Assembly: GCA_965649765.1 (NCBI GenBank)
Contig: OZ287752.1
Span: forward strand, 18,848,001-18,912,000
From: Bispira polyomma
Lineage: Eukaryota
Length of the DNA: 64,000 nucleotides
Direction: 5' to 3'
The notes under the pieces were generated by a model that saw only the letters and a program-made list of their open reading frames with translations, made no database searches and was not told the DNA's origin. Shown here piece by piece: positions 5,198-64,000 of the stretch; the stretch's first letter is position 1, and the number at the start of each line of letters is the position of its first letter. The translations under genes and the position numbers were made by a program.

Positions 5198-5557
5198 CTG
5201 GAATAATCACATTCACAATATATGAAAAACTTGTTGAACCTCCCACTGGAGCACAGGTGTACAACATTCCATCACTGTACTGTATGTCTTTAATTCTCAA
5301 GGCCATGGTGTCTATGTCATACTGGTACTTGTCTAAACTGTGACCATTGCGATAACTCACATCTTCTGTATCCACATTTTCTGTATCCACATAAACTCTC
5401 ACAATAGCTTGTGTGCCAACTGGGTTGTCTCCTTTGTACCAATACAGATATGTGGCATCATCAGGGAAAGGCTTCTCAGTGGAGCCACAAGGAATTATGG
5501 CAGTAGTTGTTACAGCAGCAAACTCGGTAAAATCCTCTTCACACACCACTTGTAAAA
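5198..5557 (-). CDS. V-set Ig exon, probable first ectodomain exon of a third receptor gene (copy C) running leftwards
   Basis: 360-bp open phase 1-1 exon with AG/GT sites. IIPC...LYWYK...LRIKDIQYSDGMLYTC V-set pattern. No further exon recognised in 1-5197. Confidence 0.75.
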
Positions 5558-6499
5558 CTGAAATATCAACTAACAATATAATTTCACATTGAAATAAGTT
5601 AAAGTTTAATGTCATTTGAATTATTGGATGTTACCGATTGCTTAGAGTGAATTACAAAAGTTGTGATAAGAGAAATTATTAGAAAATAATTAAAATATTT
5701 CATACTCACACAATATTTGTATAATTCCGTAAAATATAATACAATTCATGATCCCTTTCATTATGATAAAGGGAATTTGTTATAAACATTGAACAAGTAT
5801 ATTATATACATCCGTAAGATGTCTAAATATTATTTTAATGATAGACTAATAAAGTGGAAGGTAAACAACTTATTACATCCCTGTACTACGAAAAAGTACA
5901 TAAATAGGAAGGAGTACTGAAAGAAATGTGTATATATCTCTATATATGTGTATATAACGACTAAAAGAGAATATAGAAGGAAGTTTAAAGTGATATTATT
6001 GACATACCAATGGAGTTTACACTTAAAACTTGGCAGACAAACAAATAGACTCTTAATAAGTCACTTCATAATGTGGAAAGAACTTTGCATCATGTTTATT
6101 AATATTAATGCATTATTAGTGACTTTATCTACCAGGGTCCATATTTATATTCTGATTTGTTCATTAACTACAACCTAACACATACATCAGAATATGTGAG
6201 AATAGTGTCTCAAATGAAAAAAATAAACATTTGTGAAAAAATTAACTATAAAAGTAAAACATAATTTAATTATTTCACTTGATCAAGTTATGGTTAGTGT
6301 GGTGGCTTCTTAAGGCCACTTTAAATTTGATTTAAGGCAACTTTAGTCCATTAGTATATTGAAGTGCCCAGTACTCTATATAGCAAGTAGTACAAAACTA
6401 AATATAAGAGATTACCTCATGCTGAGTCTCAATACCTTATTTAATCTTCTGTGATAATATTACAATAGATAACTTAAAATATTTAATCAATACATTCGA

Positions 6500-6745
6500 T
6501 ACACCAGCCTTGTTTTCGGATAGTTTTTGAAATAATTCAATCTCAGCTTCCTCAGAAATACTAGCGATGCTGCGACATATGGCGCAAAGACTAACACATA
6601 TTAGCAGCCAGGTACCCATTTACACACATGGGGGGGGACTTTGTGTGAAGTACCTTGTCGAAGGATACAATCTCCAGGCCAGCAACTAGGATAGAACCTA
6701 GTCTGTCAGGTACAAAGTCAGACACTCTAACCACTAGGCTACAAA
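6500..6745 (-). mobile_element. CORE-type tRNA-SINE remnant
   Basis: Minus-strand TGTAGCCTAGTGGTTAGAGTGTCTGACT head, then GTATCCTTCGACAAGGTACTTCAC and AAATGGGTACCTGG core-like motifs. Confidence 0.65.
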
Positions 6746-7470
6746 GACTACCATGACAGAGTAATTAGTGACTTTGGACAATCATTTATATAACAGGTTT
6801 TGTACTGGATAACAAATATAAAAATGTCATTGTCAATGCTCGTAACCTAGTTAGGGCTCACAATAAATATAAATTGTGGAAACTAAAATGTATTTGCTTA
6901 CCCATTTAAAGTTAGGCTTGTCAGAATTTCTGTTCGTTGGTTACTATAACAGTCTACTAATGTAGTGGCTAATCCTGTGTGTCATTAATTTGGCAATGAA
7001 ATTTTACAGGAGGCTATATGTGGCCCATTGTCATACATCACAAATCATTGCCAGAGAGGAGACCAATTCAGACCACAAATTGTCAACCTTTTATGGCATT
7101 TGGATCAGGCAATGTGAGTAAAGATGTGTACTTTGTCAAATAGTTTAAACTCTATAAGAATTTTTCTAAGAATAATTTTAAGTATAAAAATTATTCTAAA
7201 TATAGGAACTTCAGTGAATACCAAAAATTCTTATTCTAATTATAAGAACTTTAGTACATAACAAGGAGACCATTGACAGCTAGTGTTGCTATGCTGTGCT
7301 GACTGCACCTATTTGCCTGTATATAATGCAGCACCTTGAACTGGTCTGTGTAATGACACACAGTAATAAAGGTATAACATATGCGTTGATTGATACAACT
7401 ATATTACATAAAGTATGAGATATTACACAATAAGCTACACATAAAACAATGTCACCTAACAGTGCATTAC

Positions 7471-7523
7471 CTGAGTACACTGTATTATATTAAAACAAGT
7501 ACAATTTTCTTGCAGCAGTTCAT
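7471..7523 (-). pseudogene. Possible signal-peptide exon of copy C, apparently frameshifted
   Basis: ATG + MNCCKKIVLVLI then TAA; CAG|GTAATG donor. 53 nt is one base off the phase-1 junction needed to join exon 5198-5557. Confidence 0.3.
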
Positions 7524-8092
7524 CCAATTGTTGGAGGTCAAGCAGTCAAGGTCATGTGAAAGGTCATATTTAGTGTATGAAGTGTGAAAGATTTAGTAAA
7601 ACTATAGGTTTGAGAGTTTATTTTTGTACAAATTAGCACATAGTATGCAGTATAAAGAGGGTTAAAATAGTAAATTTTTAAATTTTTAACACCCATAACA
7701 GTTCATATAAACATACATAAAACGTATCAATAATAATTACTGAACATCCAGAACAGTGAAACATAAATAGTTTCCAGCTATCTAATTAAGTATTCATTTC
7801 GGACTAGCTGTATGAGTAGTTATTATTAAAATCAGTGTAAAAAAGGTCTAGATCCCTCACTGAGACAATATTTTAGTTGTATTTTTAAATCCAAGTCTGC
7901 TTCACAAACAATATTTGAAAGCCACCTACTTGACCAGTACATTAATACTGCAACATTTTCTTCTATCTTCCGGACAAGATTTCCAAGCTATGTACTTGGC
8001 CAGTACACAAGTACTAGCGATATGACAGAACATTTCAACATTTAACATTTTATGACATCTTTAGCTTTCTTATCCATACACTGCTAGGAAAG

Positions 8093-8226
8093 CCGGGGTG
8101 ACAGGCCGAGTCCTGCAGCACCGAATCGCCTAGCGGAAAGTTCTGGTGCCCAGAGCTCTTATTCGACCCTGGTCCCCAAGTGTGAACTCAGGGGAGGTTT
8201 AGGAACCAGAACTCTCCACAAAAAAA
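8093..8226 (-). other. GC-rich candidate structured RNA motif, copy 1 (three-way junction)
   Basis: Homologous to 31950-32080 (+). Three helices whose plus-strand A-C mismatches become G-U pairs on the minus strand. Confidence 0.5.
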
Positions 8227-11200
8227 CGGGTAGCTCGCCCCGGCGACCAACAGTATATAAATAATTAAGTGAACATTTACCATTCATAAGAACCTTCAAG
8301 GTACGATATATGTGACCTGCTGTTGCCCCAAAGACGCGCTCGTACAAAATACATTAAAAAAATTGTGAACCAAAATGGTTCAAAGAACATCCTCATGTAC
8401 ATCTGCAGGTTACATAGTCTATTTTGGTTGTGGTAAAAGGGATGTGGTTCGGTAAATTTGTAGTGTTATTCCTTCAAAGCCCTGTTTCAATATGGCATTT
8501 TAAAAGGTGGAAAAAGTATTGTCCCCTCGAACAAAGAGAATGGCTATGTGCGTGGGTGGATGGGTGGATGGACAGAGCCAATCTTGGTCAGCTCATCCCC
8601 AGGGGTTAAGGTGGTTCTATACTTATTTGCAATTGTGAAGAACTCAAGTATCAGACTGTTTGTGGTAGTGATTGCTAAACTTATAACTTAAATACCCAAT
8701 ATAAAACTCCTTACAATACTTGGGGGTGTGTGAATATGCACCCATATAAATGATTTCAAATTGCAATACATGAATTTCCATGACAAAGGCATTACCACAG
8801 CTGTCCACTAAACTCAGATACTGCTAACCCGTCTAGTTAACTCATACACTGAGCAATGGTCCACCATTTTCATATTGGTATTTGTCTGTTAACTAGCTCC
8901 TAGCCATAAAATACATTTGAGGAATTCATATAGACTTCCATGTAAAAATTGCGGTACAAACATATTTAAGAAAAACTACTCGGTAAAAAAGTTTGAATGA
9001 AAGGTGAATGATGTTTAAAGTACAGTTGATATTAATCAATTTTTCGAACATGTTATGAAAACAATGAACTGCTTTCCATTCTTATTATGACTTGAATAAG
9101 TATCAATGTGTACAAAGTTTTTTGAGGGATGCATACTTCGATCATATAATTACAACATCCCAAAATATTAAGGTTATACTAATGTTAATAGAACAAGAAA
9201 GATGTTATATTTTGGATGACCTATTGATTTTTGTTCACCATGAGGAAAATGTGATCTTTCTAAAATTTTACACAAATAAATGGTAATTATTTTAAGTTAG
9301 TGCAAAAGACAGAGAAACACTGAGAAAAATTATATGTCAAATCCATGATAAAGTCAATTTTGATTGAATAGACAGGGAAATTTGCCGTGGCATCAATATT
9401 GTCCCACATTTACACCTTCCCACCTAAATATTATAAGTGTTCCCCCCAGATCTCATCACTATATTTCACTGTAGTTTATCTGCATCACAACGCGTAACAC
9501 TTATTACATTTTATGTTACTGCCATAGATCATATCTTGAGTCCAAATGTATCAGTCACATAATGTCCATGTACATCATAGGAGTGTTGTTTACATAACCA
9601 AGAGTTTGTTGTGCCCCCTCCCCTTCCATAAGTGCAAATATATGGCAAGTTTCAAGTTAGCAGCATATGATATTTGCTAGTCATTCTCCCTACACAGTCT
9701 CTCAGACATAGGAATTTCCGCTGTCAGTCTCACAATCAATTAAACAATATATCACTCATTGTAGCTGAACCAATAACCAACCTTGTTTTAACCATTTTTA
9801 CAGTTACACTAACCTACCTTATCTTGCGAAGATAAGAACTCTTTCTTATATGATTACAAGACTACAAGTCACATGCAAAGATAGAGCTCTTACAAGTTAA
9901 GACTGACATTCACCTTAAGTTTGGGTATTATCACCATATGAGTTTGGTAAATGTTGACCCTGTCTTTAAGGCCACAATATTATGATCTACCCATACCATA
10001 ATTTATGGTTGGCCAACTCCACAACATGTCACTTGTGTGTATTGACAGGTTGCTCAGAAACATCCTCATCAACTTATGCATGTTGTGTGGGAAACGTCAT
10101 CCCTACCCAGGACAATGGTCACAGCTGCATGTGCCACAATTGTAAGCATGCAGGGACACTAACCAGGGAGCAATAAATCAAAATTGAATACAAGAACATA
10201 ATCTTGAAATGGACGTGATTGAGCTAAATTTGGCACATTATACAAAAACTATTATTTGAAAGCCATATATTGTTTATCCAAATATGGTTATAATTGCGCT
10301 AACTTTATAAGTAACGTCATTGGCTGATTTACCGAAGACTGTGAGTAGGATAATGCCATAGTACTTGATCCTAACACAGTTTGACTAATTAAGAACTAAT
10401 CTGTCATCATATAACGTGATAATATGGATATACTTTGTTGTTCATTGCATGCGTAAATACTCATCTGATTAAATGTTATTTTCTTCTACCCAAAACTTAA
10501 TTATGTGGCACATATGTAAGTGATAGCTTTGTCAATAAAATTACACTCCTAAAATAACATCCTGCTTACATTCCCCAAAAAATCTGGTATTTAAAATGCA
10601 AAAATTGGAAAACATAAAATCATATTTTTGTTTAGGACAAATATAAATAAAAGATATGTAAAAATGTAACTTTATGTCAATTTTACACTTAAATTTGAAG
10701 TTATATTGTAAAAAAAACATAAAAAGCAGTAGAGTTTTGGTTTGTATCAGCACATTATTTGGTTGGGATTGGTTTTTTGATGCATCGACTGAGTGGGCGA
10801 TAATTGATGCAGTTCACAGACACTGACTCACAGCTTTACCATGTACCCACAAACCATGTGCAAACGGGACCTACCAATAAACCCTGCTCAACTTACACAG
10901 CATGTATTTTTGTTAACAAATTTATTAGTTTCTCGAACATTTAACGGAACTGGTTACATTTGTCTCACAATCCCTCCCAATAATGAAAATGTCCATCTTG
11001 ATGCTTGTCTCACTGGTGTAGCTATATATAGGAAATAGGGGTATGTCAGGTGATGTTATTAGATAAGACATACTATAGAGCAAGCAATTCTTAAGGGGAG
11101 TACTTCAAAATGTTTTACTACATCATATATGGAATGTCATAAGTTTGATGAAACCAAACCTTAGTGAAACATTTAAGACATCTATCAAGGATATGTACAA

Positions 11201-11552
11201 TGTAAAAGTTATTGATTACAATTTCATATAACACCTAAATAGGCTCAAAACAATAAGGATCAAGATAATCAAGTATTTTTTTATCCATACATATCACTAT
11301 TTTATCAATGATCATTCTCTTAACCTATACATATTCAATTTCACAATATATGTAGCATAACTTGCAAATATACCTTTCAAGCAGAATGTCTTTGCCAGCA
11401 TACACATTTTAAACTAAATTATTATCTAATAGATTATAGTTTTGTTTTAAGATAAATACATACATGAGGAAATATACCCCATCCATTAACCAAGTAAAAG
11501 TCCATTTCAAAACACCATTTAAATTAGATTGCAGTTTACAAAACATTGATAT

Positions 11553-11741
11553 TCATGGCCTGATGTTTGCATATGGTTTCTGAATTAGCGGATCTGCCAC
11601 ATTCTCATATGTAGATATATGTCTGCTTTTGCCTCAGCTCTATAAGTAGATTTATCCAGTGCGTCAAGCTTGTTTAGAAGTGAACTGAAGCTGGGTCTCT
11701 GTTCAGGGTTATATTCCCAGCATGCTGTCATCAGCTCGTAT
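11553..11741 (-). pseudogene. Copy B terminal kinase exon, frameshifted
   Basis: YELMTACWEYNPEQRPSFS matches 45401-45596; 2-bp AT insertion near 11616 shifts the tail. Confidence 0.9.
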
Positions 11742-12224
11742 CTTAATAAATATAAAAGGCCAACAGAAACATAAAATCCATGTACATTAGTTTTCTTTGT
11801 TATGTAGCATTATGCAATGGGGTTTATGGTAGTTTACTAATAGTAATTAAGAATTTAATTTAATTTAAAATGAATAATTTGATGCTAAAGTTAATTCTTT
11901 CCAAAGTGTAATGTTAGTAGTTGAGATGACCAGTAACAGATTTCAGATTATCCACATCTTGACACTTTAAGCTGGGCATAAGATGTATCAAATACTGTGG
12001 TAGTGTTCATATTTACTATCATAGTAAACAAAATTGTGGATTGATGGATTAATATTGATGTACAAGTTAAACAATTTTGCAAGCATTTAACCTTTGTATA
12101 TTTATATGTTAGTTGGTTTTTTTTTAATAAAACCAAAAAGTTTGATATTTTAATATATTCATGGTCACTTCACCTTAAACTGAATCACTGAACAACCTAC
12201 TCCACTATAATGATAAATATAAAT

Positions 12225-13262
12225 ACTTTTAAATTTGGCTACCCTTATTTGACCTTCAAGAAATGGCCCATGTCAAACCTGACCACATCAGAAGACTCTC
12301 AGCCCATGATTTTCTATAGGTTGGTGTCACATCTCAAAACTGCAGGACCAATAACAAGCGAGTTATAAGCACTTTTAAATTTGGCTACGCTTATTTGACC
12401 TTCAAGAAGGGCCCAAGGTCAAACCTGACCACATCAGAAGACTCCTAGCCCATGATTTCCTATAGGTTGTTTTCACATCCCAAAACTGTAGAACCAATAA
12501 TAAGCGAGTTTTAAGCACTTTTAAGTTTAACTACCCTCGTCTGACCTTGAAGGAGGGGCCCAAGGTCAAATCTGACTACATCAGAAGAGTCATAGCCCAT
12601 GATTTCTTATATGTTGGTTTCACATCTCAAACCTGTAGGACCAATAATAAGCGAGTTCTAAGCACTTTTAAGTTTAACTCCCTACGTCTGACCTTGAAGG
12701 AGGGGCCCAAGGTCAAATCTGACCACATCAGTAGAGTCCTAGCCCATGATTATCTATAAGTTGGTTTTACATTGCAAACCTCTAGGACCCATAATAAGCG
12801 AGTTCTAAGCACTTTTAGGTTTCGTTATCCTCGTTTGAACTTGAAAGAGGGGCCCAAGGTCAAACCTGACCACATCAGAAGACCTTAAATGAACTCTGTG
12901 GATGACCTTTAATGAAGAGCTTCAAAGTCAAATGTCTGCATGCTTGTAGAGGACATATATATCTGTTATACATATCACCTATGAAGAGATTCAACCTTCT
13001 ACTTACGAGAACTAGCCAGTAGAAAAAGATAGATAATTTTCAAAGAAATGCCCATGGCGGCCATCTTGTTTTTAAGAATGAGGCTAATTTCAGTCGCAGA
13101 GGTGTTTACATCCCAATGAAGATATCCTGCAAATTTCGCTAAGCTAGCTGATCTAGTTTTCCGCTGAGAGTGTTAACGGTGAAAATCTCTTTACGGCGGC
13201 GGCGGCGGCGGCGGCGTAGCCAAAGCTAAACCAAAGTATCCACCTCATCGGTGGATACAATT
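12225..13262 (+). mobile_element. Helentron/HINE-like non-autonomous element: ~4.5 x 147-bp tandem array, (GGC)n microsatellite, terminal palindrome
   Basis: GAC(C/T)ACATCAG recurs at 12281, 12427, 12574, 12721, 12868; (GGC)n at ~13195-13215; hairpin GTATCCACC-TCATC-GGTGGATAC at ~13237-13258. Absent from the equivalent copy A intron. Confidence 0.75.
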
Positions 13263-13495
13263 AATTGCTATTGTTTCACACATATGGAAAATGTTATTCT
13301 GAATAGACTTTTACATGGGTCAGAAAAACTGGCTCAAGGCCATTACTGATTATATGTCAAACACATGTCCTCTTTTGTTATAATGGTTTCCTAAACCTCT
13401 CGAACAATATAGCTATCATGGTAACTGATGACATGAAAATCACGGCTTATATATCTGTGTTAATTATAATACCATATCATTTAGAAATTACTTAC

Positions 13496-13592
13496 ATATT
13501 TACAGGGCAATCATTCGGTTTCTTGAGTGTCTTAGCATTTCTAACATATGCTTTGATATCTTCCTCCATCATGCCATCATATGGGACACCAC
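13496..13592 (-). pseudogene. Copy B kinase exon (GGVPYDGMMEEDIK...KKPNDCP)
   Basis: 97 bp, homologous to 46443-46539, splice sites intact. Confidence 0.9.
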
Positions 13593-13695
13593 CTGGTAAT
13601 AAATTAAGTAAAAAACATTGCAGAAGATATTTAGAAGTGTATCACAGATAACTATCTTTTATGGTAAAAGTTAAGAAATATACATACATATTTAC

Positions 13696-13806
13696 CTATG
13701 GAATAAATCTCATATTGTAGAATTCCAAAAGCCCAAATATCAGATGCTCTTGAATGAGCTCTACAATCTCCAATTACTTCAGGTACTTTCCACTGTATTG
13801 CTCCAG
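13696..13806 (-). pseudogene. Copy B kinase exon (QWKVPE...[12 protein letters not shown]), acceptor destroyed
   Basis: Homologous to 46679-46793; a small deletion removes the AG acceptor. Confidence 0.88.
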
Positions 13807-13943
13807 TGGTTAAATAAAAAGTATACACAAATAACTGAATTATTAATTGTACTGTACAGAATATATAAATAATGTATCATTAAGTAAGACAGCTGTTAAT
13901 ATATTGACCATGTATAAGTGTATTTTAGTTAAACTCATATAAA

Positions 13944-14238
13944 CAGGATTCAGAGAGTTCTCCACTGCAGCTCCACGGTTATGGAACAGTCTCCCAGTCG
14001 ACCTCAGATCAGTTGACACACTTATCGGGTTTAGGAAAAAGCTTAAAACCTATCTTTTTAACCTTGCCTACCCACCTTACCTTCCCTTGTGCACGCTCCC
14101 ACTTCCTTCCTTTCGACTTTGCAATGTCCATGGACTTAATGATTGGACCAATGATTCTGCTGTTGCGCTTTAGAAGATGCCCAGCATCAATAAAGCTCGT
14201 TAAAAAGCTATAATAATTAAATTAATTAATTAATAATT
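13944..14238 (+). mobile_element. L2-type LINE 3' fragment inserted beside a splice donor
   Basis: FSTAAPRLWNSLP...FRKKLKTYLF motif, 3' UTR and AT-rich tail. Absent at the equivalent copy A site (~46925). Same family as 63813-64000 and 36746-36910. Confidence 0.88.
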
Positions 14239-14247
14239 AAACTTCAC

Positions 14248-14355
14248 CCCTTCATCTTCTTCTTTGATCTCTCTCTGAAGAACATGCTCCTTAAATCCAA
14301 AGCCAGTCAGTCTACACGACTCACTGTCATCAACTAGCAAATGTAAGATTTCATG
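14248..14355 (-). pseudogene. Copy B catalytic-loop exon with in-frame 21-bp deletion
   Basis: HEILHL-LVDDSESCRLTGFG versus HEILHLQLSAEHVLVDDSESCRLTGFG in copy A (108 vs 129 bp). Confidence 0.9.
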
Positions 14356-15472
14356 CTGAAAAATTACAGCCATGTCATATACCGTGTTATGTACCTTTCA
14401 AAATTGTTCATGGCAGCAAATGTTATTCAAAAAACCATACAATGACAAGAGTTTAACATCTAGATTGTCAGAAGATTGAAATAAATACCATGTATCCAGT
14501 ACCAGTCAGGAGGCTACTGTTGTTGTTTGATAAACTTACACTAACATGAACTGAATATATTCATACATGAGGGAAACTTCATATCACTAGAACATTAATA
14601 CATACAGTATCATTATTTAGCTTGAATAAAAGTCAATTCTAAAAATGCAATAATATACAATGGATAATTTCATATGGCACGTTTACTTCTTTAAAAATAC
14701 AGATACTAACAGTGTGCGTAGGATATCTAGACTGGGATCTGTCCTATATGTAGCAATATTTCACTACTAATAGACAAAACATATCTGAGCTCGACAAAAC
14801 TATAATCTAAGTTATTTAGCATATTCAAGAAGTTACAGTGATGTACAACAATACAGATAAATATATAAAACAAATGTACGATTTAGCAATGGCAACAGTT
14901 GATAGCTTCGCCAATTGTGACAACTGAAAATAAAATAGTTTTGAAAGGGAATCTTAGGGACTAATAAAAATCACCTTTCCCTATTTATAGCATCATAAAA
15001 CGTTTGAGACACTATCCAGCTAGACAGTTAATTTCTGAAATAGTTTATTTTTTTTAAAACGGGTGAGGGGAAGTTTCCTATATAAAAGTTTTGTGCTGAT
15101 ATTTATTTTCATTAGAAGCATTTATGTAGCGCTAAAGTAATGGCAATACATCATTCAAGTCACTGGTTAAAAATAAAGAATAGTCCTACAGCTTTAATTT
15201 GATCAGTGTGAGTAAATCATACTCCAAAGGATAATTATAGCTCCAAAAAGAGATTTATTGGGTACCCTATGATCACCAAACTAAATCCCCAAGCACTGGA
15301 GACCACAGGATGGTATAAATTTAACTATCATGTTTTATGAATCAGTTACGTGACATTATACTATGACAGGCTGATTCTACAGCAATATTTACAGAAGGAT
15401 AAAATAATAGCAAAGAATACGTAAGCAATTATACCTACACAAATGCCTACAATGTTTCTTGTGTTTACTTAC

Positions 15473-15633
15473 ACTTTGTCGTTCTAAATATGCAAGTCCC
15501 TGTAAAGTATAAAACATCAGCTGTTCTTATTCCGATAGTATACTCAATCTTCTAGTTCAGATCTTTTTTTGCAAGAACTACTTCAGGTCTCCATTTTTGT
15601 AATATTTTGTAACAACTTTGACACTCATTGGAC
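15473..15633 (-). pseudogene. Copy B kinase exon (GPMSVKVVTKYYKNGDL), disrupted
   Basis: Homologous to 47656-47828; +1 and -13 bp indels. Confidence 0.88.
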
Positions 15634-16062
15634 CTAATGATATTACAGTAAAATGTTACAATAAAGTTATAGTTTTGGTTATTGACCTTACTGAAGCAAG
15701 CCTGATTCTGTCTCAGTAAAATTCATTTTTTCAGTATACAATTAATATTAGTGTAAATATGTTATTTGCCTCTTTCACAACTGGTCAGAATGGTGGGTAT
15801 GGACTTAAACATTTCAAATTCTAGCTTTGGTAAAATAGTTAGGACTTTGACACATTCAACTATTTGTTTAAAGCCACGTTTCATCATGACACTAACATGT
15901 ATACAATTGGCTAATAGACTTAGAATTAGGATCCATCATTATTCTGATAAACTATTAACATATACTGATGATAAATATAAAATAACTTCATTATATAACA
16001 TTTCACAAATATCCTGATTGTAATTTGGAACACTGTATCTAGCTTAAAACAATGGTGCATAC

Positions 16063-16170
16063 CTGTAATACCAAATGCATATGATTCAATAATACCTGGA
16101 TGGCTGCCAACTTGTTCTAAACAGGTGAATTGATTAAAACTGAACTAAGCCTCAGAAACTCGAATATCAT
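16063..16170 (-). pseudogene. Copy B alphaC kinase exon with nonsense mutation
   Basis: DIRVSEA then TAG (CAG in copy A, 48277-48384). Confidence 0.9.
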
Positions 16171-17061
16171 CTGTAATAATGATACAAACAAAACATTTAA
16201 GCATATTTTAATAAATTTGTTTTGTGTTTAATTAAGAGTCTCAGGCTACTACTACATAAAATTACATCAATTATATTGAACAGACAGTAATCTGTGGTAA
16301 TTTTTGAATTGCAAGTTTTACTTTGGCTTATATATTGGGCTAGTATCTTGTAATACGCTAGTATCTTGTCAGAGCCCTAGTAGATAGACATCTATAAGCA
16401 ATGCCTCAAACACTGACCTCATATGCAGGGTAATATATTGGCAAGAATTCTTAATTTACTACTTTTTTGGAATGAGGCTACAGTTCACTGTTGGGAACAT
16501 TTATACCCATGCAAACTGTATACACAATTTAATCAAGATATCTATAACGGCTTGTGAATGATAAACAAGAACATGGTGGAGTGGCCTTCAATAAAAGCAT
16601 TGGTTTTCCTCTATTTTGTAGTTTGTTGTCGAAATCAATTACAAGCAATACACCAGTTTACAGTTTTGCTATATAAGGTGAGGGCGAAGGTCGTTTAAGA
16701 ATTTGGAGGTAAGCAAATCAACTTCTGTGAGCTACGAATTTTTATATTTATACAAATGTTTATAAATTGACATGGATACATGATATATTCTGAGCATGCT
16801 CAATACCATCCCAGCAAACTAGAAAAACAGGTAGGCCACCATTTTATATATTTTAGAATGCCAGACAGAAAATTGTTGGCAGTCAATAAGGAAACCATCC
16901 CAAAACGAAAAAATCAACCAAAAATGAGAGAAAAGGATTCCATATTGACACCCACAAAGATCTGCCACATCTAGACTTAGATGCAGTCTTTGGGCAAAAT
17001 TTGAGACTATAGCTCTCTACCAGTTCTGAGATTGTTGTTGCCACTCCAATCTTGTATGCCA

Positions 17062-17236
17062 AAATTACGCTAAAGTTTAGTAGGAGCAAGATATTATGAC
17101 AGTTAACATGTCCTGAATATCTGGTGAGGCTAGATGGAATAGTTTTACTCTGTCAGTGTCAACAAAGAAATCATTTCACACAAGGTGGCGGCGGCGTAAC
17201 CGCATGCAAACCAAAGTATCCACCAGATGGATACAA
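17062..17236 (+). mobile_element. HINE-like element 3' end shared with copy A (61803-61976)
   Basis: GGCGGC run plus GTATCCA..TGGATACAATT palindrome at the same intron position in both paralogs, so it predates the duplication. Confidence 0.7.
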
Positions 17237-17283
17237 TTAACATGAGCAGATATGCCAATAATATAATATTAAATGCAACTCAC

Positions 17284-17592
17284 TTTGTTCACTTAGGTTC
17301 AGTCCACCCACCACTTTATCTCCGACACCATTACTCAGTACAACATGATACAGACCAAAGTCCTCAGCTGTTACAGGATCAAAGGTCAGTTCTATGAGAG
17401 TCTCATCCACTTTATCCCCTGCTGCTTCTACATGTATACTGTTAGCAGGTATTTTAGAACCTTCAAACATGACATCAACATGATCAGTAGTGACTGCCGG
17501 ATAAGCTTTCACTGTACAGTTTAGTAAAGCCTCTTTATTTTCTTCTGTATATGTGACCTTCTGATTAGGTGAACTCACATCAACTGGGGAAA
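17284..17592 (-). pseudogene. Copy B membrane-proximal Ig exon (open frame)
   Basis: 309 bp, phase 1-1, close homolog of 62019-62327. Confidence 0.92.
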
Positions 17593-17619
17593 CTGAAATA
17601 ATAATATAATAATAATATA

Positions 17620-18108
17620 TCAGACTTTTTTAGCGCTTATTTTTGTTATAACGAATACTAAGGCGCAAAAAAACCACAGCCAGAGCCGAAAAACATAAGT
17701 AATAGACAGAAGGAAGTCGTCATCAATGTGTCCACCGAGAATGGGAAAGAGACTATGGAGGGAATGCATCATTGAACAGATAGGTCTTTAAACTGCGCCG
17801 GAAGGAATACAGGGACGGAGCTGTCCTAATGTGTTGAGGCAAACTATTCCATAGGGTAGGGGCATCATTTGCAAAACTTTTATCAAAGTGAACCTTTGAC
17901 CTGTGTACTTTGGACTTATATTTTGCAACAAGAAGGAATCTATTTTTGGGAGCGGCTCTCCTGATGTTGACATTGCATTTGTAGTAACTCAAGTGTGGTT
18001 CAAAGTATTTAGGCAAACCTGAATCGAGAAACTTATATACTATTGTAGCAGTTTTAAAAACACACCGATACCTAACAGGGAGCCAGTGGAGTGACTTTAG
18101 AATCGATG
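17620..18108 (-). mobile_element. L2-type LINE 3' fragment
   Basis: LKSLHWLPVRYRCVFK...APTLWNSLP...FRRSLKTYLF (ORF 17753-18115) followed by 3' UTR. Confidence 0.9.
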
Positions 18109-19091
18109 AATACACAGTAACCTTTATGAACCTGTGGCTGGACTTGAAGTTGTGAGGATGCTGTCTTTGGGCTGGCGGAGGGATGGTAATACTGCCCCTT
18201 AAAATGGAGGGGGAAAGAGAAAGGGTTTTAAAATATACTGTGTGCTAAGTTATTTTTAGATATATATTATCATGGTTACATTTTTTTGGCCAAGAATTTC
18301 AACAATCTGCTAGATATTTATCATATTATAGAGCAGCCATCTTGTTCTTCATAATGGCCCCAAAATATATCCCAAGAAAGATAACTCCATGATTAATCCA
18401 GACATTAAATTTCATAAAGATATCAGCAGCAGTTGTGAGTACACTGAGCAGAGCCCATTTCCTACATTGTCGGCAATGGTAGCCATGTCGTTTTTGTGGA
18501 GCTTCCCTAAAAACATGATGTACCCATGATGAATCTATACAATTTGGTGATGATATCTATAACAGTTATCCTTTAAATGATAGATGCTAGATAGATAGGT
18601 AAATAGGGCTAAACCTTTTAAACTTTACCAAGTAAATTTGTAAAATAATGAATAAAGAAAAACTAAAATTGTTATAATCAATTTACATTTCAAGGCAAAT
18701 TAGTCATTTAGACTTGTGATCAGTACTCAAAGAAGCCATTACTCATCTATCTACAGTGCTACGCCACTGTAAATTAACCCTGTTATAGAAAATTAAGATG
18801 TATCTGAATACTTATTTTCCAAAACTGCCCACAAGCAATAATTTTAAAGTTACAAGCAAATTACTAATTTTCTGAAAGTAGCCATTATCTATTAATGTAA
18901 ACATAAACACTACTGGAATTTTGGCATGTTGTAGATTATTAAAAAGTAGCTGTACAACATATTTCACAAAACATCCTAGAAACAATAGCTCAGGAGTTAC
19001 AAGTGAATTATTCAAAGCCGCTATTGATGCCATTGCCCTTTTAGCTATACTCCCAGGCATATTAAACTTTCCTATATTGTAGAAAATCACC

Positions 19092-19428: not shown

Positions 19429-22400
19429 GAATCCAGCCTTGATGACGGAACTATTTTACTGAGAACTCCTACCACCTTAACCGCAGTGTAAATAGTTCCC
19501 ATTACACAACTACAACCAGCAAGCTTGGTTATTATAGCTTATAATACCATGCTAAAAATGTATGTACATATCATAGCAACGTTAAGTAACATAAAGTAAA
19601 ATTCACAATACCTCACAAGATGCCAGGTATTGGGCTGTTCTGTAAATCTACAGGTATAAACTGTTCAACATATCTGTTCGACATACTTCTAATGTTACAA
19701 CTGCAATCATTTTAAACACAGATGCAAACATATCATTTGAACATAAAAATGACATACTTGGACTCAATTGGGCTCAATTGGACTCAACTAAAGCATTTGA
19801 CCATTATGCAAACTGAGATCTTTGAGATAAAATTTGGTGAAAGTTTTGTGGGATTTCCAATAGCAAGCATTCAAACTCATCCAAGGAAATACCACCCGTA
19901 AAAGTCAAAGAAGCAGCCATAGAACAAATATCACGAGCTTTCACTTGACAAAGTTGCTGTGTCTCACTGTTTGACTTCTGATACACCAATAAGACAGTTT
20001 GTTTCAGCCAAAAGGAAATTGTGACTTTAAAAAAACTTTGTTATGTCCTTGTTTAAAAGCCACAAACAGGATTTTCTTATTTTACCTAAGATGCTAGGCT
20101 CTATCTAGATAGTTCTTCAAAGCTTTCACAGGGCAATGTGACCTATCCTCAACTAAACTCCTACTCAACTGAGGTTTGAAAACTGGAATAACCACTTGTT
20201 TGATAACATTTAGACCATCAGAGGCAAATTGGTTCTTTGCTAAAAAGCTGGTGATGGTGAAATAATAACCTCAGACCAATTATCCTTATAACTTATAAGT
20301 CCTGAATGAATGTCACTTATTCTCTTGCCAGAAGCCAAGGCCAAAAGAAAGACAGTCTTGTAAGTTAAAATCTTGACAGATGCCTTACATAAAGACTCAA
20401 AAGAAGCCTTAGAAATTGATAGGAATACCAGAAACAAATCCCGGTTTGGTAGGAATCTATTTGCTACTCACTTAGTCATATAGAAAACTGGCCATAAGTC
20501 GATTCAAGTCACCTTTAGTACCAAGACCATCAGCAATAGCAGTCATATACCTTGCAATAGTAAATGGTTTGAAGCCTTACTCCCCAAACAAAAAATTCAG
20601 GAAATTTGCTACATTTGGTATAGTGAAATCTGAGATCTTCACCCATTCACACCATTCCCTAAAAATGGACCACTTTGACCCATAGATCGTTTTTGGATGA
20701 AAGTCTCTAACGTTTTTTTATTTTTTTTAGCCACTTCATCTGAAAATGTTTTGAGAATCTTCAGGTCTGACGGTAAGTTTCAACCATGAAAATTCAAATA
20801 TTCCAGACTCTGGTGAAATCTGTTGCTGAATGGCTGGCTTTGTTGACAACTCCAGGAGGTCTCAAAACCATGGCATCCCTGGCTACCCTGGTGCAATGAA
20901 GATTACCCTGCACCTGTAAGCCAACAACGTTTGCACCACCTGAGGTATAAGAGCCACTGGACAAAAGACATAGGCGGCTACATCTCCCAAGTGATGTTCA
21001 ACGCATCTATTTCCTTAGCTTGACTGTCTGGGACAGGCGAGACATAGACTGACAGCTTGAAATTTTTATTTTTCACAAACAGATCGACCACAGGTTGATG
21101 CCAAATGTGACAAATCGTCTGTAAGACCTGAGAATTCAGAAACCATTCGGTCTGAATCACCCTGTCTCTGCCAGATAGAGCATTTCACAAAACATTAAAA
21201 TTCTCTGGATTGTCTCTTGGCTCTTATCTGGATGCTTCTGGCATTCGTCCCTACCAGAATTATCCACACAAGAACACACATTTCCATGGAATGTGTTCTC
21301 CCCTCTTTGTTAAGAGACGAAATGACAGTGGAGTTGTCTGTGGAAACCAATATGTTTTGAATTATAATCTGACTTTGAAAAGCTTTAAGAGCTTGAAACA
21401 GTGCCTTAAACACTAACATGTTAATGTGAAGTTTTGTCTCTATCTGATTTTACAGACCACTTGCTGCAAGATGGTTCAGATGAACACCCCAGCCCTTTTC
21501 TGAAGCATCCTTGAACAGAAGAAGCCTGAACTGCTTGTGATAGATTGGTGAACCCTACACCCTATTTGGAAGTTTTTTCCACCTTTCCAAATGTGACCTC
21601 ATGACCTGACTCAGGAATTAGAATATCCAATGACTGAGGCAAGTTCCAATTTACCTCGAGATACCACTGGTACCGCTTCATATGCAGACGAGCCTATGGT
21701 ATGCTTATCTCCATTGAAGTCATGCTCCAAATGAGAGACATAAGCTTTCTTGCAGTTGTCATTCATATTTTCAAAATAGAAGCAATCTTCCCTTGTAACA
21801 AAATTATCTTTTTTAGTCGACAAGACTACCCCATTTTGTAAGTCGAACCGGAACCCGAGAAACTTGGTGTTGTGAGATAGTGTCATTTGTAAATTATCAC
21901 CCATGCTAGCTTTAGATGAAGAAGATGTGCTAGTCTTTGAATATCTACTTAGCATTCCTGCCTTGTTTTGGATCTTAACAGGCAATCATCTATGTAGTGA
22001 TGGATCCTCAAGCCCTGAGCGAGAGTCATGAGTTTCACCTCTTATGTTACCCATGTAAATTTAATGGCTGTAACGATTTTGAATGGTAGCAAAATGAACT
22101 GTAAGACCATTCACCTACTTAGAACTGAAGATTTATTTGGTACCTTAGATGTACAGGTATAAGGAAACACAATCACCTGTAAGGTCGAGGGATGCTAGCC
22201 GCCCTGCTGCCACCAATTCCGAATTGTTTCCGTAGTTTCCATCTAGAAAATCGGAAGAAGTAAATACTGGTTTACTTGACTTTAAATCTATTACTGGACC
22301 CCATTTCCTGCCACGTTTGAAACAAGAACCAGGCAATGCTGTTCTTTACCGGAAGTATTGCGTTTTTGTAAACAGCTTCCATTAAAACTGCTGTTATTGT

Positions 22401-24296
22401 TAACCTAAATATCTGCTAGTAATTCTCGCCTAATTTGATAAAGGTGGGAGATTCTTTAAATTCAAGCAATATCCTTCCTTTAAAATTTGCCCCACTCTTG
22501 GGTGAGCATAAATGGACAGACGACCTCCTGGACACTGATAGTGATTTTCTTCTGGTGCCTCTGGAACCCCTGAAAGATTCCCTGGCTGAATATATATCCT
22601 TCCTTCTGAGTAAGGATATATAAAGAAATTGTCTCTGTTGGCTTCATGTGGATTAGAAGAATCTCTATTCACATGTGACGACTGAATAAATATATGTTGG
22701 ACCTCAGGTAACTTCTACACAGGAACAACTCATTTATTATGAAGGATGAAACTCTTAGCTTCTGTGAATCATCCTTATTGACATCTTGGAACACAACTTC
22801 AAAAAACCATCTCTCTTGCTAAAACACATATTTCCTGTCAGACATTGAAGTTTCCAGCAAACTGATGATAGCTTTCACCAAAGAACATGTAACTGAATAC
22901 AGTCCTCCATACCTTCCAAGCACTGGCACAGTCTTCTGAGTCCCCTGACTTAAGCTTAAGCATATTCTACTGAATGTTGAGTGGGTCTGATATTGGCTGA
23001 ATTGAACCAGTAGATGAGATTCAGACACACTAATGTTCTCTCTACTGACAGTTTTCAACAAAGTATAATGTTTTGAAGGTGAAACTTGAAGGAGCTTGAT
23101 AAAAAGGGGATAGTTTGTTCCTAAAAGCATCCTGAATCGTAGAAGCCTCATGAGAATGACGTTATGGAGAGACCTGGTACCACTTCATAGCTGGCTTGTC
23201 AAAAGAAATGAATTGTCCTTAAGTCAAAGAGTTATTCCTAAAGACTGAAAACTGCTTAAAAAACTCACACCTTCACCATATTCTCAGCTGGTGACAAAAG
23301 AACAGAACCCTCATTAGACTTCTTAATATGTGACTTGCGAGCAAAACTGAAAGGCTACAGTGGTGTACATGTCAGTAATTCAAAGTCCAGCCACTTCTTA
23401 ACTGCAGACAATATTTCAGCATATTTAGATGGAGATTGGTGACTCTCCTCTATCTGTATTCTAGGTGAGTGTGTAGGCACGTCTTTGGTAATCTTTTCAA
23501 TAGTGTTTAGCTATCAGAAAAGTACCTGATCTGACTTAAGATGGCTGCTAATAACTGCTTACATTTAAGTGAACCAAAGGATCAATCTTGTTAGTAAAAA
23601 TAAGACAATCATCTTCCACATCTAAAATTGAATCGGCAAACTTCTGTCTCGCTCCAATCACTGATATTTTGGGTGGTAGCGACACTCTGTCTGTAGCCTT
23701 GCCCTTGGACAAGCTAGAACGTGTAGATGAAGAGCGAACTTCGGTTGATCGTTCAGATTTCTTGCCATATACAATACCATAGGACCTCATCCTGCACTCG
23801 GATCTTCCAACAAATGTCTCCACCTGTTGAGATATAGCTGCAACAAGTAAGTGCTAGCCAAGCCCTATATTTCTATGGTAACAGCTTTGTTTACAAACCT
23901 GTGACTAGATGACGAGACCTTGTAAGTCATATCTTTGCTGGTAGAATTACTTCATTTGTGACAAAATGGCTGACAAAGACTGCTTTGAAGACGATTAAGT
24001 CAATAAGGTAAGCTAAATAATGATTTTTTTGGCACACATTCTGTTAAATTCACAGGCATGAATCAAGTTCGATCCCACGTGATATTTAACTTGAGATTCA
24101 ATCTCAAAGTGGACATAAAATTACCACAAAAAAGGGGATTTCTCTGCATCTGTTGTAGAATTCATTGTCTTGTAGATATAACTATAATTAGTTGAAGAAA
24201 TGGAGTAAAAAATCTTAAACATACAAAAGAAAAACCCGAAAGTCCAAACATGTTCAAAGATGGACCTCACTGTTGGCAAACATAATTAATAAAGTT

Positions 24297-24475: not shown

Positions 24476-24519
24476 CAGCAATGCAGAGGACCCATAGGTT
24501 GTCAATGAGTGAGGTTAGA

Positions 24520-24730: not shown

Positions 24731-25975
24731 ATACATTTAAATCAGTCAGCTTAAGTTACCTTTTCATATGATGGAAGGTCATCAATTAATTGCAAATGCC
24801 ATTTTTCAGTAATTGCATGCTTTTGTAGGAGCAACACAATTGAAGAGTTTGATTCAAAAGGATGTCTCCAATATTACACACATACCCCATTTTAAAGTAG
24901 GATGTACCTAAATATCTATTATCTGAACACCTTTGAAGAGTGATAATTTATTCGGATAATAGAATGTTAAAAATAGAGGCATTTTAAAATAAAACAATAG
25001 AAAAATATATAGAGTGAAATTGAGTTGCGGAAATATAGAAGATAACACAGGTTCTACGGTACTATACTATATATACTAAACAAGCCCCACAGTGAAATTG
25101 TTTTTACTGGTTGATAATTATTTGATGATTACTTGATGAAATTTAGAGCCCGCAATACTAATGCATACTTCAAATTGAGCCTGGTCAAAGAAAGTTTACC
25201 AACATATCACCAATTACAGCCCTTCCTGATGCAACTCCCTTTGGATCAAGAAGAAAATTGAAACTTTTCATCCTTATGCTCATAAATATCTACAAAAAAG
25301 CTTTGGGCATGTGTGGGACTAATTGTTCGGAATAAGAGTTTCATAATTGTAAAAAAGACACATTTTTCTTGGGTCATTAATGGACTACACAATCATCTTA
25401 CGAATAAAATTTTCTGGGTAATTCTTCACTGAATAACTTCTAAACCATTTATTCTTTTACATTGACATAGAAAATTAAGGGCAAGAAATATCAAGAAATA
25501 GCTGAAAGTCATAAAAATGACCAATCTTCTATGACAAAATTGGTGGATCGAAACAAAATCAGGTTGAAATTGCTCTATATCACTCAATCTTAGAGATATT
25601 TTTGAACATTTTTCTGCATTTTTTAATGAAGTTCACTTTGTGTACATTTTATGGTTTGGTGATTCGGAAATATATAATCAAACTCGCTGAAGCTCATTTT
25701 TAAGAAATTGCATTTTTGAAAACTTTGCAGAGGTTGCTTACTATAATAAAATGTTTATTGGTCTGCTAAACGTTCAAAAAGTGACTTGCCCTAAGATTCT
25801 AAGATAAGGCAGTTCCCCACAAAATCTAACTAAAAAAGCTATATTAGTTATTGAAAAGATGTAAAAATATGTCCCCAAACCTTTTTTAAAATAGTTCTTT
25901 GTCAAGCAATAACAGTCAAAGTTCAAGGTAAGCATTTAACACAAATTTCCAAGGATGCTTAGTAAAAAAAATTAC

Positions 25976-30361: not shown

Positions 30362-30652
30362 ATTGAATAGTATATGTTTTTATGTCTAACACCAATAGAT
30401 ACACATTTTGACTTCCCTCAGCTCTACAAAACACTCCCACCCTGTTGTGTTGTCTGTCTAGTGTCAGTGTAATGGTTTGCTGACCTTCACCCAGATCTGT
30501 CCACTTCTGTTGTGTACCATCATCACTTGTCCAGATAGAATAACTTGGTGAGGGGTTTGCATCCAGTGAACATGCAAACTCTACAGAGTCTCCCTCACTA
30601 ACAGGTGGACTACTAGAGGGGTTTCCTGACAGAATGAGAGGAGGCTGAACAT
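30362..30652 (-). pseudogene. Copy B Ig exon 4 (open frame)
   Basis: 291 bp; VSEGDSVEFACSLDANPSP..W...LDRQHNRVGVFCRA. Confidence 0.9.
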
Positions 30653-38599: not shown

Positions 38600-39400
38600 A
38601 GCAATGATTCAACAAATACTTGAAACGTCTTGACCATAAAAAAACAGTGAAAATTAAGTTGTGTTCCCAGTAACAAAACACAGGTGAATATGATCAAACT
38701 TTAGTTAAATAAATTTTTCCCGAGCTGTTTCTTATCAAGCCCCTGCTTTTTATCAAGGCAATCACAGATTCAGTCTTGAAACAGGTGGGAAAAATACCAT
38801 TCCGAAAGAGAAAGATTTAAAATGTTGGTTATGGGTGTACCTAGAATGTCAAGGCATTGATTTAGAATAACTGCTGGGATAGGATAAAGTTCACAAGATT
38901 TAATAGGAGAGGATTTCATGAGTTTTAGAACATCCTGCGCCGAGAGTGTGCTGAAATGGAATACTCCCTTGATAAAAAACCAAGGCTTGCTAAGAACCAG
39001 CTCAAAACTACAGACCGGTGTTAAAACTCAGCTTTGTCTCTAAAGTTATCGAGAAAGCTGTAGCACAAATTTTGGACCACCTCAACAGACACAACATCAA
39101 AAATTGTCACTAATCTGCCTACAGAAAGTTTCACTCTACAGAAAGTGCCATTTTTCTATCATCAATATCAATCTTGCATTGGACTGCAATGAAACAGTGT
39201 TCCTGATATACTACAAAAGACATACTTACCCAACATCTGTCGCTCCTGTGATTACCACATCCATGACATCAAAAGAATCCGAAAACACCTGTCAGTGGAC
39301 ACTGCAATAATTGTGGCTAATGCCCTTGTGAGCAGCTGCCTCCACTACTGCAACTCTCTTTGTTTGAAGAGTAAACAAGTTACAGATTAAAAAGCTCCAG
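38600..39400 (+). mobile_element. Highly decayed L2-type LINE RT fragment
   Basis: PLIKN..KNYRPV..LSFVSKVIEKAV, SAYRKFHSTESA and ANALVSSCLHYCNSL motifs across frames. Confidence 0.75.
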
Positions 39401-44790: not shown

Positions 44791-45400
44791 GAATTGCACT
44801 ACAATTACTCGCAAGTTATAATCTGCTAATATGAGAAATTAAGTACCCAAATAGTTAAATGGAATAATATACTGTGGATGAAATATATCCTAAAATAGAT
44901 CCATATTTCTACCATGTAAAATTCATAAACATTCCAAAATGTTTTACCACATCATCGATGGAATGTCATAACTTTGAAGACACCAAAGCCTATCGAAACC
45001 TTAAGACATTCATCGAAGGTATGTACAATGTATCAAGTTATGAATTATGATTTAATATAACACCTAAATAGGGCTCATTATAATAAGAATCAAGATAATC
45101 AGGCATTATCTGATCCATACACATCACGATTTTATCAATGATCATTATTTTAACCTATACATGTTCAATTGGACAAAATATCTATGTAACATATCTATGT
45201 AACATAACTTGCAATAATACTTTTCCAGCAAAATGTCTTGACCTGCATACACATTTTAAGCTAACTTATTATCTACTAAAATATAGTTTTGTTTTAGGGG
45301 GAAATATATACATAAGAAAATAAACCCCATCCATTAACCAAGCATTAGTCCATATCAAAACACCATATAAATTACATTGTAGTCTACAAAACATTGATAT

Positions 45401-62327
<16,927 letters not shown>

Positions 62328-62810
62328 CTGAAATACACAGTAACCATTCTGAACATTTAGCAAATATATATCACTCAATGTACTTTAACTTAATTAGATA
62401 ATTAAGCATATATACAATGCTTTGAATGGGTGTAGAAAAATATAGCTGAATACACAAAAACTGCCTAGAAGCAATAATTTTAATGTTACAAGTAAATTAT
62501 TCATTTTAACCAGCGGTCAATCTGAAAGTAGGCATTTCTCATTAATGTAAACATCTACACTTGGTCTACTAAAATAAAAAAAGTAGTTGTACAACATATT
62601 TGACAAAATCACAAAGTGATAGCTCAGGAGTTACAAGTGAATTACTCAAAGTAGCTATGGATGCTATTGCTCACTTAGCTACACTCCCAGACATACTAAA
62701 CGTTCCTAGAATGTAGCCAAGTGGGGTTACAGACCTCAAAAAGACGGGTTGCACAATTGGTATCAGGGATAGGGTCTAGCAACAAATTTCAATTTTATTA
62801 CTTTGTAGCA

Positions 62811-63178
62811 GCCATCTTGTTTTTCGGAATGGGCCCAAATACAATTCCAACCAAGCTATTGACATGATACACCTCCACAACAAATTTGGTGCTGATAGCT
62901 GCAATACTTTTCCTTTAAATGTCCAAAAACCGTTTTCAGGACGGCGTAGTGGCGGACATCTTGTTTTTTAGAATGGGCCCAAATACAATCTCAAGCAAGC
63001 TATTGACATGACACACCTTCACAACAAATTTGGTGCTGATAGCTGCAATACTTTTCCTTCAAATGTCCGGAAACCGTTTTTAAGAAGGCAGCCGTGGTGG
63101 CCATCTTGTTTTTCAAAATGGGCCCAAATACAATCCCAACCGAGCTATTGACATGATACACCGCCACAACAAATTTGG
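62811..63178. repeat. ~2.6 x 144-bp tandem array (HINE-like units)
   Basis: CATCTTGTTTTT at 62813, 62957, 63102. Confidence 0.9.
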
Positions 63179-63812
63179 AAATTTTATTGGTAATTGGAAT
63201 TTTTGTTAGTAAAATTCCTATCAATTCCTAACACTTGCTATAACTGACTCCGCCGGGGAGTCGGCTCGGTCAAAACAAAAAATCCCGACACTACCTAAAC
63301 CGACCCCTTTTAGCACACACCATTATACAGGTCACAGGTTATGTGTCTGCGCACCAAGCAGACTTCCGCCTATTGTCTTCCTTACAAAATTGATCGCAGA
63401 ACGAGCACATATTATTTAGATATTTTTTTCTTTTTCCCGAGATTCGGTGTTTTTTATTTTGTGTCACATTTTTAAAATATGAGTGACAATAAGTCTTCCT
63501 CCTCTTCTAGAATATTTTACCCATTATACAGTAGAACGGACACAAATAACTATTATCTGAACACCTTTGGCGAGTAATAATATATTGGGACAAAATAATG
63601 TTTATATAATAGAGGCATTTTAATATAAAACTACACATCACTACACAAGCCCCACAGTGAAATTGTTTTCAGTGGTTCATAATGACACCTTATTTTAGGA
63701 ATTTGGACTAATTTGAACTAATATAATATTAATATTTATTGTAGACACAAAACTATACAAATACAGGTCCTACTCAGACATGCCTGGCCAAATAAAAATT
63801 CTCAACATATTA

Positions 63813-64000
63813 TTATTTATTATTATTATTATGGATTTTTAACCCGCTTTATTGATGCTAGGCATCTTCTAAAGCGCAACAGCAGAATCATTAGTCCAAT
63901 CATTAAGTCCGTGGAAATTGCAAAGTCGTAAGGAAGGAAGTGGGAGCGTGCATGAGGAAAGCTAAGGTGGGTAGGCAAGATTAAAAAGATAGGTTTTAAG
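63813..64000 (-). mobile_element. L2-type LINE 3' end, runs off window
   Basis: Reverse complement closely matches 14042-14215; (ATT)n tail. Confidence 0.9.

Follow-up and report, generated by a model that had tools for sequence, protein, structure and literature searches.

Does a tandem pair of immunoglobulin (Ig) receptor genes with kinase-like tails belong to an immune or allorecognition complex, or does it represent another kind of receptor family? The question is raised by a stretch of AT-rich animal DNA from Bispira polyomma (contig OZ287752.1, positions 18,848,001 to 18,912,000; GC 30-41%), 64 kb in length and hereafter called the window, which an original prediction had described as a candidate immune or allorecognition locus. 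The window contains two copies of such a gene, B (upstream) and A (downstream), both on the minus strand and arranged head to tail. We favour, with a probability of about 0.6, the reading that B and A are members of a family of kinase-dead receptor tyrosine kinases (RTKs), small, restricted to its lineage and evolving by birth and death, whose products would act as phosphotyrosine-docking co-receptors. Each ingredient of the locus has a precedent. The kinase-dead RTKs known are developmental co-receptors, conserved and present in few copies, and the expanded receptor-kinase families of invertebrates have no known function. A kinase-dead family with ongoing turnover would offer a concrete case for studying the role of such expansions.

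Tandem duplication and death of copy A

Comparison of the window with itself by BLAST gave eight co-linear same-strand matches between 11.1-25.1 kb and 44.9-63.7 kb (Table 1), with 75-87% identity and with introns and 3' flank included. This agrees with the original prediction, which had placed A and B head to tail with common exons, introns and 3' flank. The three A/B stretches that it singled out scored 262, 145 and 575, whereas the best of 200 shuffles reached 48, 54 and 68, and all three therefore stand; the second ends near 25118/63683 and not at 25200/63800.

Copy B is open. In our splice model, all 12 exons are open and flanked by GT-AG, and they join into 699 codons with one terminal stop. 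A single reading frame runs through an Ig domain, a fibronectin type III (FN3) domain, an FN3-like domain, a transmembrane helix, a tyrosine-rich juxtamembrane part, the kinase and the tail; a donor and an acceptor near the juxtamembrane exon, picked by frame, are inferred. The Ig exon gave Pfam matches under the cut-offs (Ig_3, E 3.5e-4; I-set, E 8e-4) and shares 91% DNA identity with its counterpart in A. The second membrane-proximal domain probably adopts a divergent FN3-like fold. Four of the five kinase exons scanned matched Pfam PK_Tyr_Ser-Thr (best E 1.2e-10), and the six kinase introns presumably follow, in position and phase, a pattern like that of Tie/RET/FGFR.

Copy A comprises nine Ig-type exons, namely a V-like fragment and eight more with Pfam Ig matches (E 2e-8 to 0.03), followed by six kinase/tail exons. 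The V-like fragment is interrupted by a repeat at about 36912-36750, probably LINE-like (long interspersed nuclear element) to judge from copies at 14.0-14.2 and 63.8-64.0 kb. The seven Ig exons between 25976 and 32884 all match Ig_3, Ig_2, C2-set_2 or C1-set (E 2e-8 to 0.03); the sixth of them carries a stop and the seventh, which is the eighth Ig exon of A, a frameshift. Stop codons lie at 26862-26860, 16147-16145 and 15580-15578, kinase exon 3 has gained 1 nt and lost 13, the tail is also frameshifted, and 21 nt are lost across the catalytic loop. Moreover, we found no trace in copy A of five B exons (both FN3-type domains, transmembrane helix, juxtamembrane part and first kinase exon). A public contig of 1107 nt (16149-17255) bridges the deletion junction without a difference in all three sequencing runs consulted, the 16147 stop is likewise covered by public contigs, and these two lesions are therefore not assembly errors; among the contigs listed, none bridges the 15580 stop or the 21-nt loss. 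Tandem duplication followed by the death of copy A is thus established, and the claim of one open and one dead copy is borne out. We also noted that the fourth Ig exon of A has its acceptor and first part duplicated in tandem over a small stretch (30605-30826; 86 nt, 81%).

Table 1. Features of the 64-kb window and co-linear A/B matches (A position / B position)
Feature	Position	Strand	Description
Copy B	62327-45401 in window	-	12 exons
Membrane-proximal Ig exon of B	62019-62327	-	counterpart of ninth Ig exon of A
FN3 exon of B	53917-54192	-	Pfam fn3 E 1.8e-12; GT-AG, open
Second membrane-proximal domain of B	53325-53585	-	open phase 1-1 exon; weak Pfam Kre9_KNH E 0.054
Transmembrane exon of B	49206-49330	-	21-residue window, mean hydropathy 3.56; basic residues follow
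Juxtamembrane exon of B	48897-49043	-	three Yxx[ILV] motifs
Predicted pseudokinase and tail of B, seven exons	48683-48518, 48384-48277, 47828-47656, 47062-46934, 46793-46679, 46539-46443, 45596-45401	-	open
Copy A	about 36.9-11.55 kb	-	pseudogene
Candidate small 5' exon of A	near 39.29-39.23 kb		candidate only
V-like Ig fragment of A	36583-36935	-	Pfam V-set E 0.083; split by short repeat fragment
Seven Ig exons of A	32884-32556, 31523-31209, 30652-30362, 29224-28934, 27854-27561, 26969-about 26670, 26246-25976	-	
Ninth Ig exon of A	17284-17592	-	open; Pfam Ig_3 E 2.1e-5
Deletion junction of A	16255-17049	-	B counterpart 13.3 kb (61791-48444): five exons and retrotransposon
Remaining six kinase/tail exons of A	11551-16170	-	broken: stops, frameshifts, 21-nt loss
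V-set Ig exon	5198-5557	-	360 nt, complete, open, phase 1-1; Pfam V-set E 2.2e-6, above curated cut-off
Tyrosine-recombinase retrotransposon (DIRS-order, Ngaro/PAT-like)	55441-61567	-	inside Ig-FN3 intron of B; no part of receptor
A/B match	11106-12196 / 44935-46049		82%
A/B match	13261-13944 / 46197-46928		76%
A/B match	14234-14753 / 46920-47467		80%
A/B match	15293-16255 / 47468-48444		81%
A/B match	17049-17600 / 61791-62335		87%
A/B match	18821-19082 / 62457-62716		75%
A/B match	24886-24995 / 63520-63631		81%
A/B match	25066-25118 / 63630-63683		87%

A dead kinase under purifying selection

Two active kinases, phosphorylase kinase and the epidermal growth factor receptor, can be aligned gap-free with the catalytic-loop exon of B, and in this alignment HRD is replaced by HLQ, the loop Asn by His and DFG by GFG. 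The sequence of the glycine-rich loop is SKGRYS, and the lysine of beta-3 appears to be kept (VMVK). By the usual criteria, these replacements make the domain a pseudokinase. B is thus a predicted tyrosine pseudokinase receptor that has lost the catalytic Asp, the catalytic-loop Asn and the DFG Asp, as the original prediction of a pseudokinase tail had it. Copy A keeps the same GFG motif, which indicates that the loss of DFG is older than the A/B duplication.

Over the kinase and tail (246 codons, one branch being a pseudogene), A and B differ with a synonymous divergence (dS) of 0.231, a nonsynonymous divergence (dN) of 0.086 and a dN/dS of 0.37. For the membrane-proximal Ig domain (102 codons), the one Ig exon that A and B have in common, the values are 0.179, 0.069 and 0.39, and six intron or flank stretches diverge by 0.14-0.23. 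The kinase value indicates that purifying selection acted on the dead kinase through much of the period after the duplication, and the domain is thus constrained; no excess of replacement changes is seen in the single comparable Ig domain. The catalytic-loop exons (A 14248-14355, B 46934-47062) are even 99% identical, with a single, synonymous difference in 108 aligned bases, whereas identity is 78% for the sixth kinase exon and 80-87% for introns. This near-identity reflects either strong constraint or local gene conversion.

These data bear on the idea that the whole family, B included, is decaying and that the lost catalytic residues mark early pseudogenisation. Copy A is dead and the upstream exons of B lie outside the window, which would suit such a decay; however, the intact splice sites and open exons of B, the dN/dS of 0.37-0.39, the single silent change in the catalytic-loop exon and the GFG shared with A all argue against it, and we consider it most improbable.

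Docking tyrosines and the immune reading

The cytoplasmic part of B contains eight Yxx[ILV] motifs, five YxN motifs and three hexamers that fit the ITIM consensus (immunoreceptor tyrosine-based inhibitory motif, [ILVS]xYxx[IVL]). Against 20,000 shuffles, Yxx[ILV] is enriched over the whole cytoplasmic part (8 versus 4.2 expected, P 0.04) and more so in the juxtamembrane part and tail, a region chosen after the sequence was seen (6 versus 1.06 expected, P 5e-5; ITIM hexamers there, P 6e-4). The strict ITAM (immunoreceptor tyrosine-based activation motif, Yxx[IL]x6-9Yxx[IL], as defined in the Alr paper) gave no match in B, and one appeared only when the spacing was relaxed to 6-12. The proposed likeness to ITIM/ITAM receptors therefore holds for the inhibitory consensus but not for the activating one.

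The motifs would suit an immune or allorecognition complex of the Alr, KIR or LILR kind, in which variable V domains would recognise ligands of self or non-self, ITIM-like motifs would recruit an SHP-type phosphatase and gene content would differ between haplotypes. The tandem copies with a pseudogene among them and the three ITIM-consensus hexamers are in line with this; the missing strict ITAM and an Ig dN/dS at the level of the kinase (in the membrane-proximal Ig compared) are not. RTKs generally have docking tyrosines next to their kinase domain, and such tyrosines are not by themselves a sign of immunity. On the balance of this and the evidence below, such a complex seems unlikely. It is unlikely, too, that the locus forms a gene-content-variable recognition family in which V-set, Ig and FN3 domains are combined with a dead but conserved kinase that has ITIM-like motifs on its flanks, as a KIR/LILR-like inhibitory complex made from RTK genes. 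If a recognition complex of this type were real, it would reveal a new molecular means by which invertebrates tell self from non-self.

The V-set exon at 5557-5198

The original prediction had counted the exon at 5557-5198 as a third, divergent member of the family. The exon is a real and open V-set exon of canonical type, with Cys, Trp and the DxGxYxC tyrosine corner kept, and its best PDB matches are the V domains of T-cell receptor alpha and PD-L1 (E 9e-6). Nevertheless, no relationship with the V-like fragment of A was detected: identity is 19% (E 0.096), no significant match was found elsewhere within the window, and the 5.2 kb downstream contain no A-like second Ig exon. A word-index protein search found nothing for it, two candidates having come up without a score. 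The exon may be a paralog of the receptor family or part of another Ig gene. As it is not tied to the kinase genes, it also speaks against the immune reading, as does the one V-exon variant among the rows listed (5301; 677 further rows fall outside the listing), which is synonymous. Taken together, the earlier interpretation stands for tandem duplication with pseudogenisation and for the pseudokinase tail, and it finds no support so far for this exon as a paralog, for an ITAM, for diversifying selection (Ig dN/dS 0.39) or for hyperpolymorphism.

Family size and possible haplotype differences

We then considered public contigs from three runs (X1, X2, X3), which represent one study and at most two samples, X1 and X3 being of the same sample; the likeness threshold was 82%. 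The runs may come from the very animal of the window, and they constitute no population evidence. As the unit of depth we took the mean depth of long exact contigs at 7.6-17.3 kb (21.5, 81 and 18.5 in X1, X2 and X3).

In these units, depth was 0.9-1.2 at bins 9574-10441, 1.6-3.3 at bins 4800-5233 and 5668-6535, and 3.8-8.5 over four kinase-exon bins. At position 14293 in the catalytic-loop exon it reached 6.8-23, and the B-type base was found on five, three and eight separate contigs in X1, X2 and X3, respectively. The V-exon bin stood at 6.4-8.0, against about 2 in the flanking bins. An intron stretch present in A and absent from B (14782-15215) gave 1.7-2.3 units, plus a second, gapped contig. 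The depth and the several distinct contigs over the kinase exons hint at several further close paralogs of the kinase and of the V exon outside the window, as the original prediction would require, since it needs more than two copies in the genome. The multi-copy, canonical V-set exon adjoining the pair would also fit the immune reading.

Within the window, contig depth at 7600-17300 is about half that of 4.8-6.7 kb in the three runs, which hints at a hemizygous block. The 7.6-17.3 kb stretch shows one unit and no differences among the contigs listed (X1 and X3, six contigs each and 6412 nt; X2, seven contigs). At 5842-6680, where depth is about 1.4-2.1 units, the two runs of the same sample disagree, one showing no substitutions and the other 10, with 3 gaps. 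Taken by itself, the lack of differences is a weak argument for hemizygosity, since it concerns the longest contigs only (24 listed, 147,330 beyond the list) and X1 also has no differences at 5842-6669, where X3 has 10. The simplest reading, as a hint, is that the 3' part of A and the interval between A and the 5557-5198 exon are present on one haplotype only, and such a hint of presence/absence would again be in keeping with an immune complex; alternatively, the 4.8-6.7 kb region itself was recently duplicated. Either case amounts to copy-number complexity.

Related sequences were also found elsewhere. HMMER with kinase exon 3 over 1.84 billion representatives returned three matches, two of them real relatives; the other (P0002), a leucine-rich-repeat protein, was discarded as a spurious match. 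Three open reading frames (ORFs) related to this exon are 61, 54 and 38% identical to B and 38-85% to each other. Each is recorded on an ENA contig of 1,654,919 nt, presumably one and the same, in which case they would form a diverged cluster in a related assembly. A fourth ORF, 97% like one of the three, lies on a contig of 2,539,073 nt.

Comparison with known receptors

The other searches returned generic matches. For kinase exons searched singly, the best PDB matches were generic tyrosine kinases, and kinase exon 2 gave nothing meaningful there; the word-index search with kinase exon 3 among longer proteins found nothing, its three candidates being without a score. The Ig exons best match Robo, neurofascin, Dscam and SYG-2 (E 3e-9), with Otk at E 9e-4, as generic multi-Ig proteins do. 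None of 10 window ORFs occurs by exact sequence in the protein collection, and an Atlas search gave generic Ig and kinase clusters only. A metagenome scan produced 27 loci; the 15 inspected, which we take to be DDR-like, match generic kinase motifs only, show no match to the Ig, FN3, transmembrane or catalytic-loop exons of B and were rejected as relatives.

Receptor tyrosine pseudokinases include PTK7/CCK4, Drosophila Otk, ROR, RYK and ErbB3, conserved genes present in one or few copies, of which PTK7, ROR and RYK are single-copy and well conserved. B resembles PTK7 and Otk as a predicted single-pass receptor with an Ig ectodomain and a tyrosine-kinase-type domain devoid of catalytic residues, likely a co-receptor or scaffold. 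It differs from all five in its FN3-type domains and in belonging to a family that duplicates and dies, and we make no claim of orthology. Could B nonetheless be an ordinary developmental or adhesion pseudokinase of the PTK7/Otk/ROR/RYK kind, with a few recent duplicates that arose incidentally in repeat-rich DNA, and with the V exon of an unrelated Ig gene beside it? The Ig matches to neural and adhesion receptors, the purifying selection throughout, three retroelement remnants in or beside the genes and the unlikeness of the 5198 exon to the V fragment of A are all compatible with this. However, the several further close copies indicated and the diverged trio on one contig exceed one accidental duplication, and conserved receptors such as PTK7, ROR and RYK would hardly leave just two real relatives of kinase exon 3 in the HMMER search. 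We therefore hold this explanation to be quite unlikely.

Long Ig arrays with C2-set_2-type domains (weak Pfam matches, four exons) recall Nephrin, SYG-2 and Sns, receptors with FN3 next to the membrane and a tyrosine-rich tail. Nephrins have one FN3 and no kinase domain, whereas B has two FN3-type domains and a kinase domain; we regard the similarity as generic.

EXTK kinases have expanded independently in several lineages with unknown function (PMC3342872), a recurrence of RTK expansion like that suspected here; since expansions without an assigned function are thus already known, expansion alone is no pointer to immunity. No EXTK sequence came up in the searches made. In oyster, 40 RTKs and five unassigned tyrosine kinases have been counted (PMC4883820), and Lymnaea has 30 RTKs, two unassigned (PMC11589774). 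The Alr complex holds 41 Ig/FN3-like genes, 12 of which are pseudogenes, and some carry ITAMs or ITIMs (10.1101/2022.03.04.482883; PMC11999971); in oyster, a receptor with five Ig domains and an ITAM signals in haemocytes through Syk (PMC6994640). Both would speak for the immune reading. Like Alr, LILR and KIR, the present locus consists of tandem single-pass Ig (and FN3-like) genes with one domain per exon, pseudogenes among them and tyrosine motifs in the tail. Alr ectodomains, in contrast, are short and their tails have no kinase described in the text consulted, whereas A has nine Ig exons and both copies a kinase domain, giving about nine canonical Ig domains and a predicted pseudokinase. 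Alr Ig domains are also unusual, many being without the core disulfide and tryptophan (10.1101/2022.03.04.482883), which the 5557-5198 V exon retains. The oyster CgIgR/CgIgIT2 receptors are alike in being multi-Ig invertebrate receptors that signal via tail tyrosines (PMC11999971, PMC6994640), but with five Ig domains, a classic ITAM and no kinase domain reported. In the literature searched, which left most subscription journals outside and thus does not show absence from print, we found no description of a tandem invertebrate Ig/FN3 pseudokinase family. The locus would resemble a tandem immunoreceptor array in its genomic behaviour and PTK7/Otk-type pseudokinases in its protein design.

A proposed docking co-receptor

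As a kinase-dead docking co-receptor, B might work as follows. Its ectodomain, which should B match A upstream would comprise about nine Ig and two FN3-type domains, would bind a cell-surface or matrix ligand, and ligand-bound B would cluster with an active tyrosine kinase, either a receptor or a cytoplasmic one. This partner would phosphorylate the juxtamembrane part and tail at their six Yxx[ILV] motifs, on which SH2 proteins could dock; three of these motifs fit the ITIM consensus and three fit YxN. The pseudokinase itself may serve as a scaffold or allosteric partner, and copies would arise and die through unequal crossing-over in the repeat-rich array. The process served may be adhesion, development or defence.

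Several points weigh against this proposal. The co-receptor function, the ligand and the phosphorylation are predictions from the sequence. The further 5' Ig exons of B fall beyond base 64000, so the 699 codons are the in-window part only. Over the cytoplasmic part as a whole, ITIM-consensus hexamers show no enrichment (3 versus 1.17 expected, P 0.11), and the comparison in which they are was the one selected with the sequence in view. Summed contig depth is not copy number, and the depth figures are a hint only. Finally, word-index, HMMER and metagenome searches, run with single exons, found no full-length homolog, and the subfamily is therefore not placed.

Repeats and retroelements

The retrotransposon in the Ig-FN3 intron of B is absent from A. 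It matches RVT_1 (E 5e-8), an RNase H-like domain (E 0.003-0.007) and Phage_integrase (E 2.1e-5) in Pfam and carries split direct repeats of the form A1...B1 A2 B2 (61326-61567 = 56096-56339, 95%; 56336-56830 = 55441-55935, 97%). Its gag-like, reverse transcriptase, RNase H and recombinase frames are slightly decayed, with a stop between reverse transcriptase and RNase H. A second, heavily decayed DIRS-like element with recombinase- and RNase-H-like fragments occupies about 19800-24000 in the eighth intron of A, between two intron stretches shared with B, and a third decayed reverse transcriptase fragment resembling the same retrotransposon order lies between B and A (about 40090-40870, plus strand).

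Tandem repeats are also present. A unit of about 146 nt in 4-5 copies (12218-12883) occurs only in the last intron of A, with a genome depth of about 20,000 units, and units of about 139 and 144 nt lie in introns of B (50381-50818 and 62805-63178). LINE-like fragments, remnants of a reverse transcriptase of the type without long terminal repeats, were noted at 1169-3460, 14042-14235, 17753-18244, 36831-36914 (in the V-like exon of A), 38770-39027 and 63808-64000.

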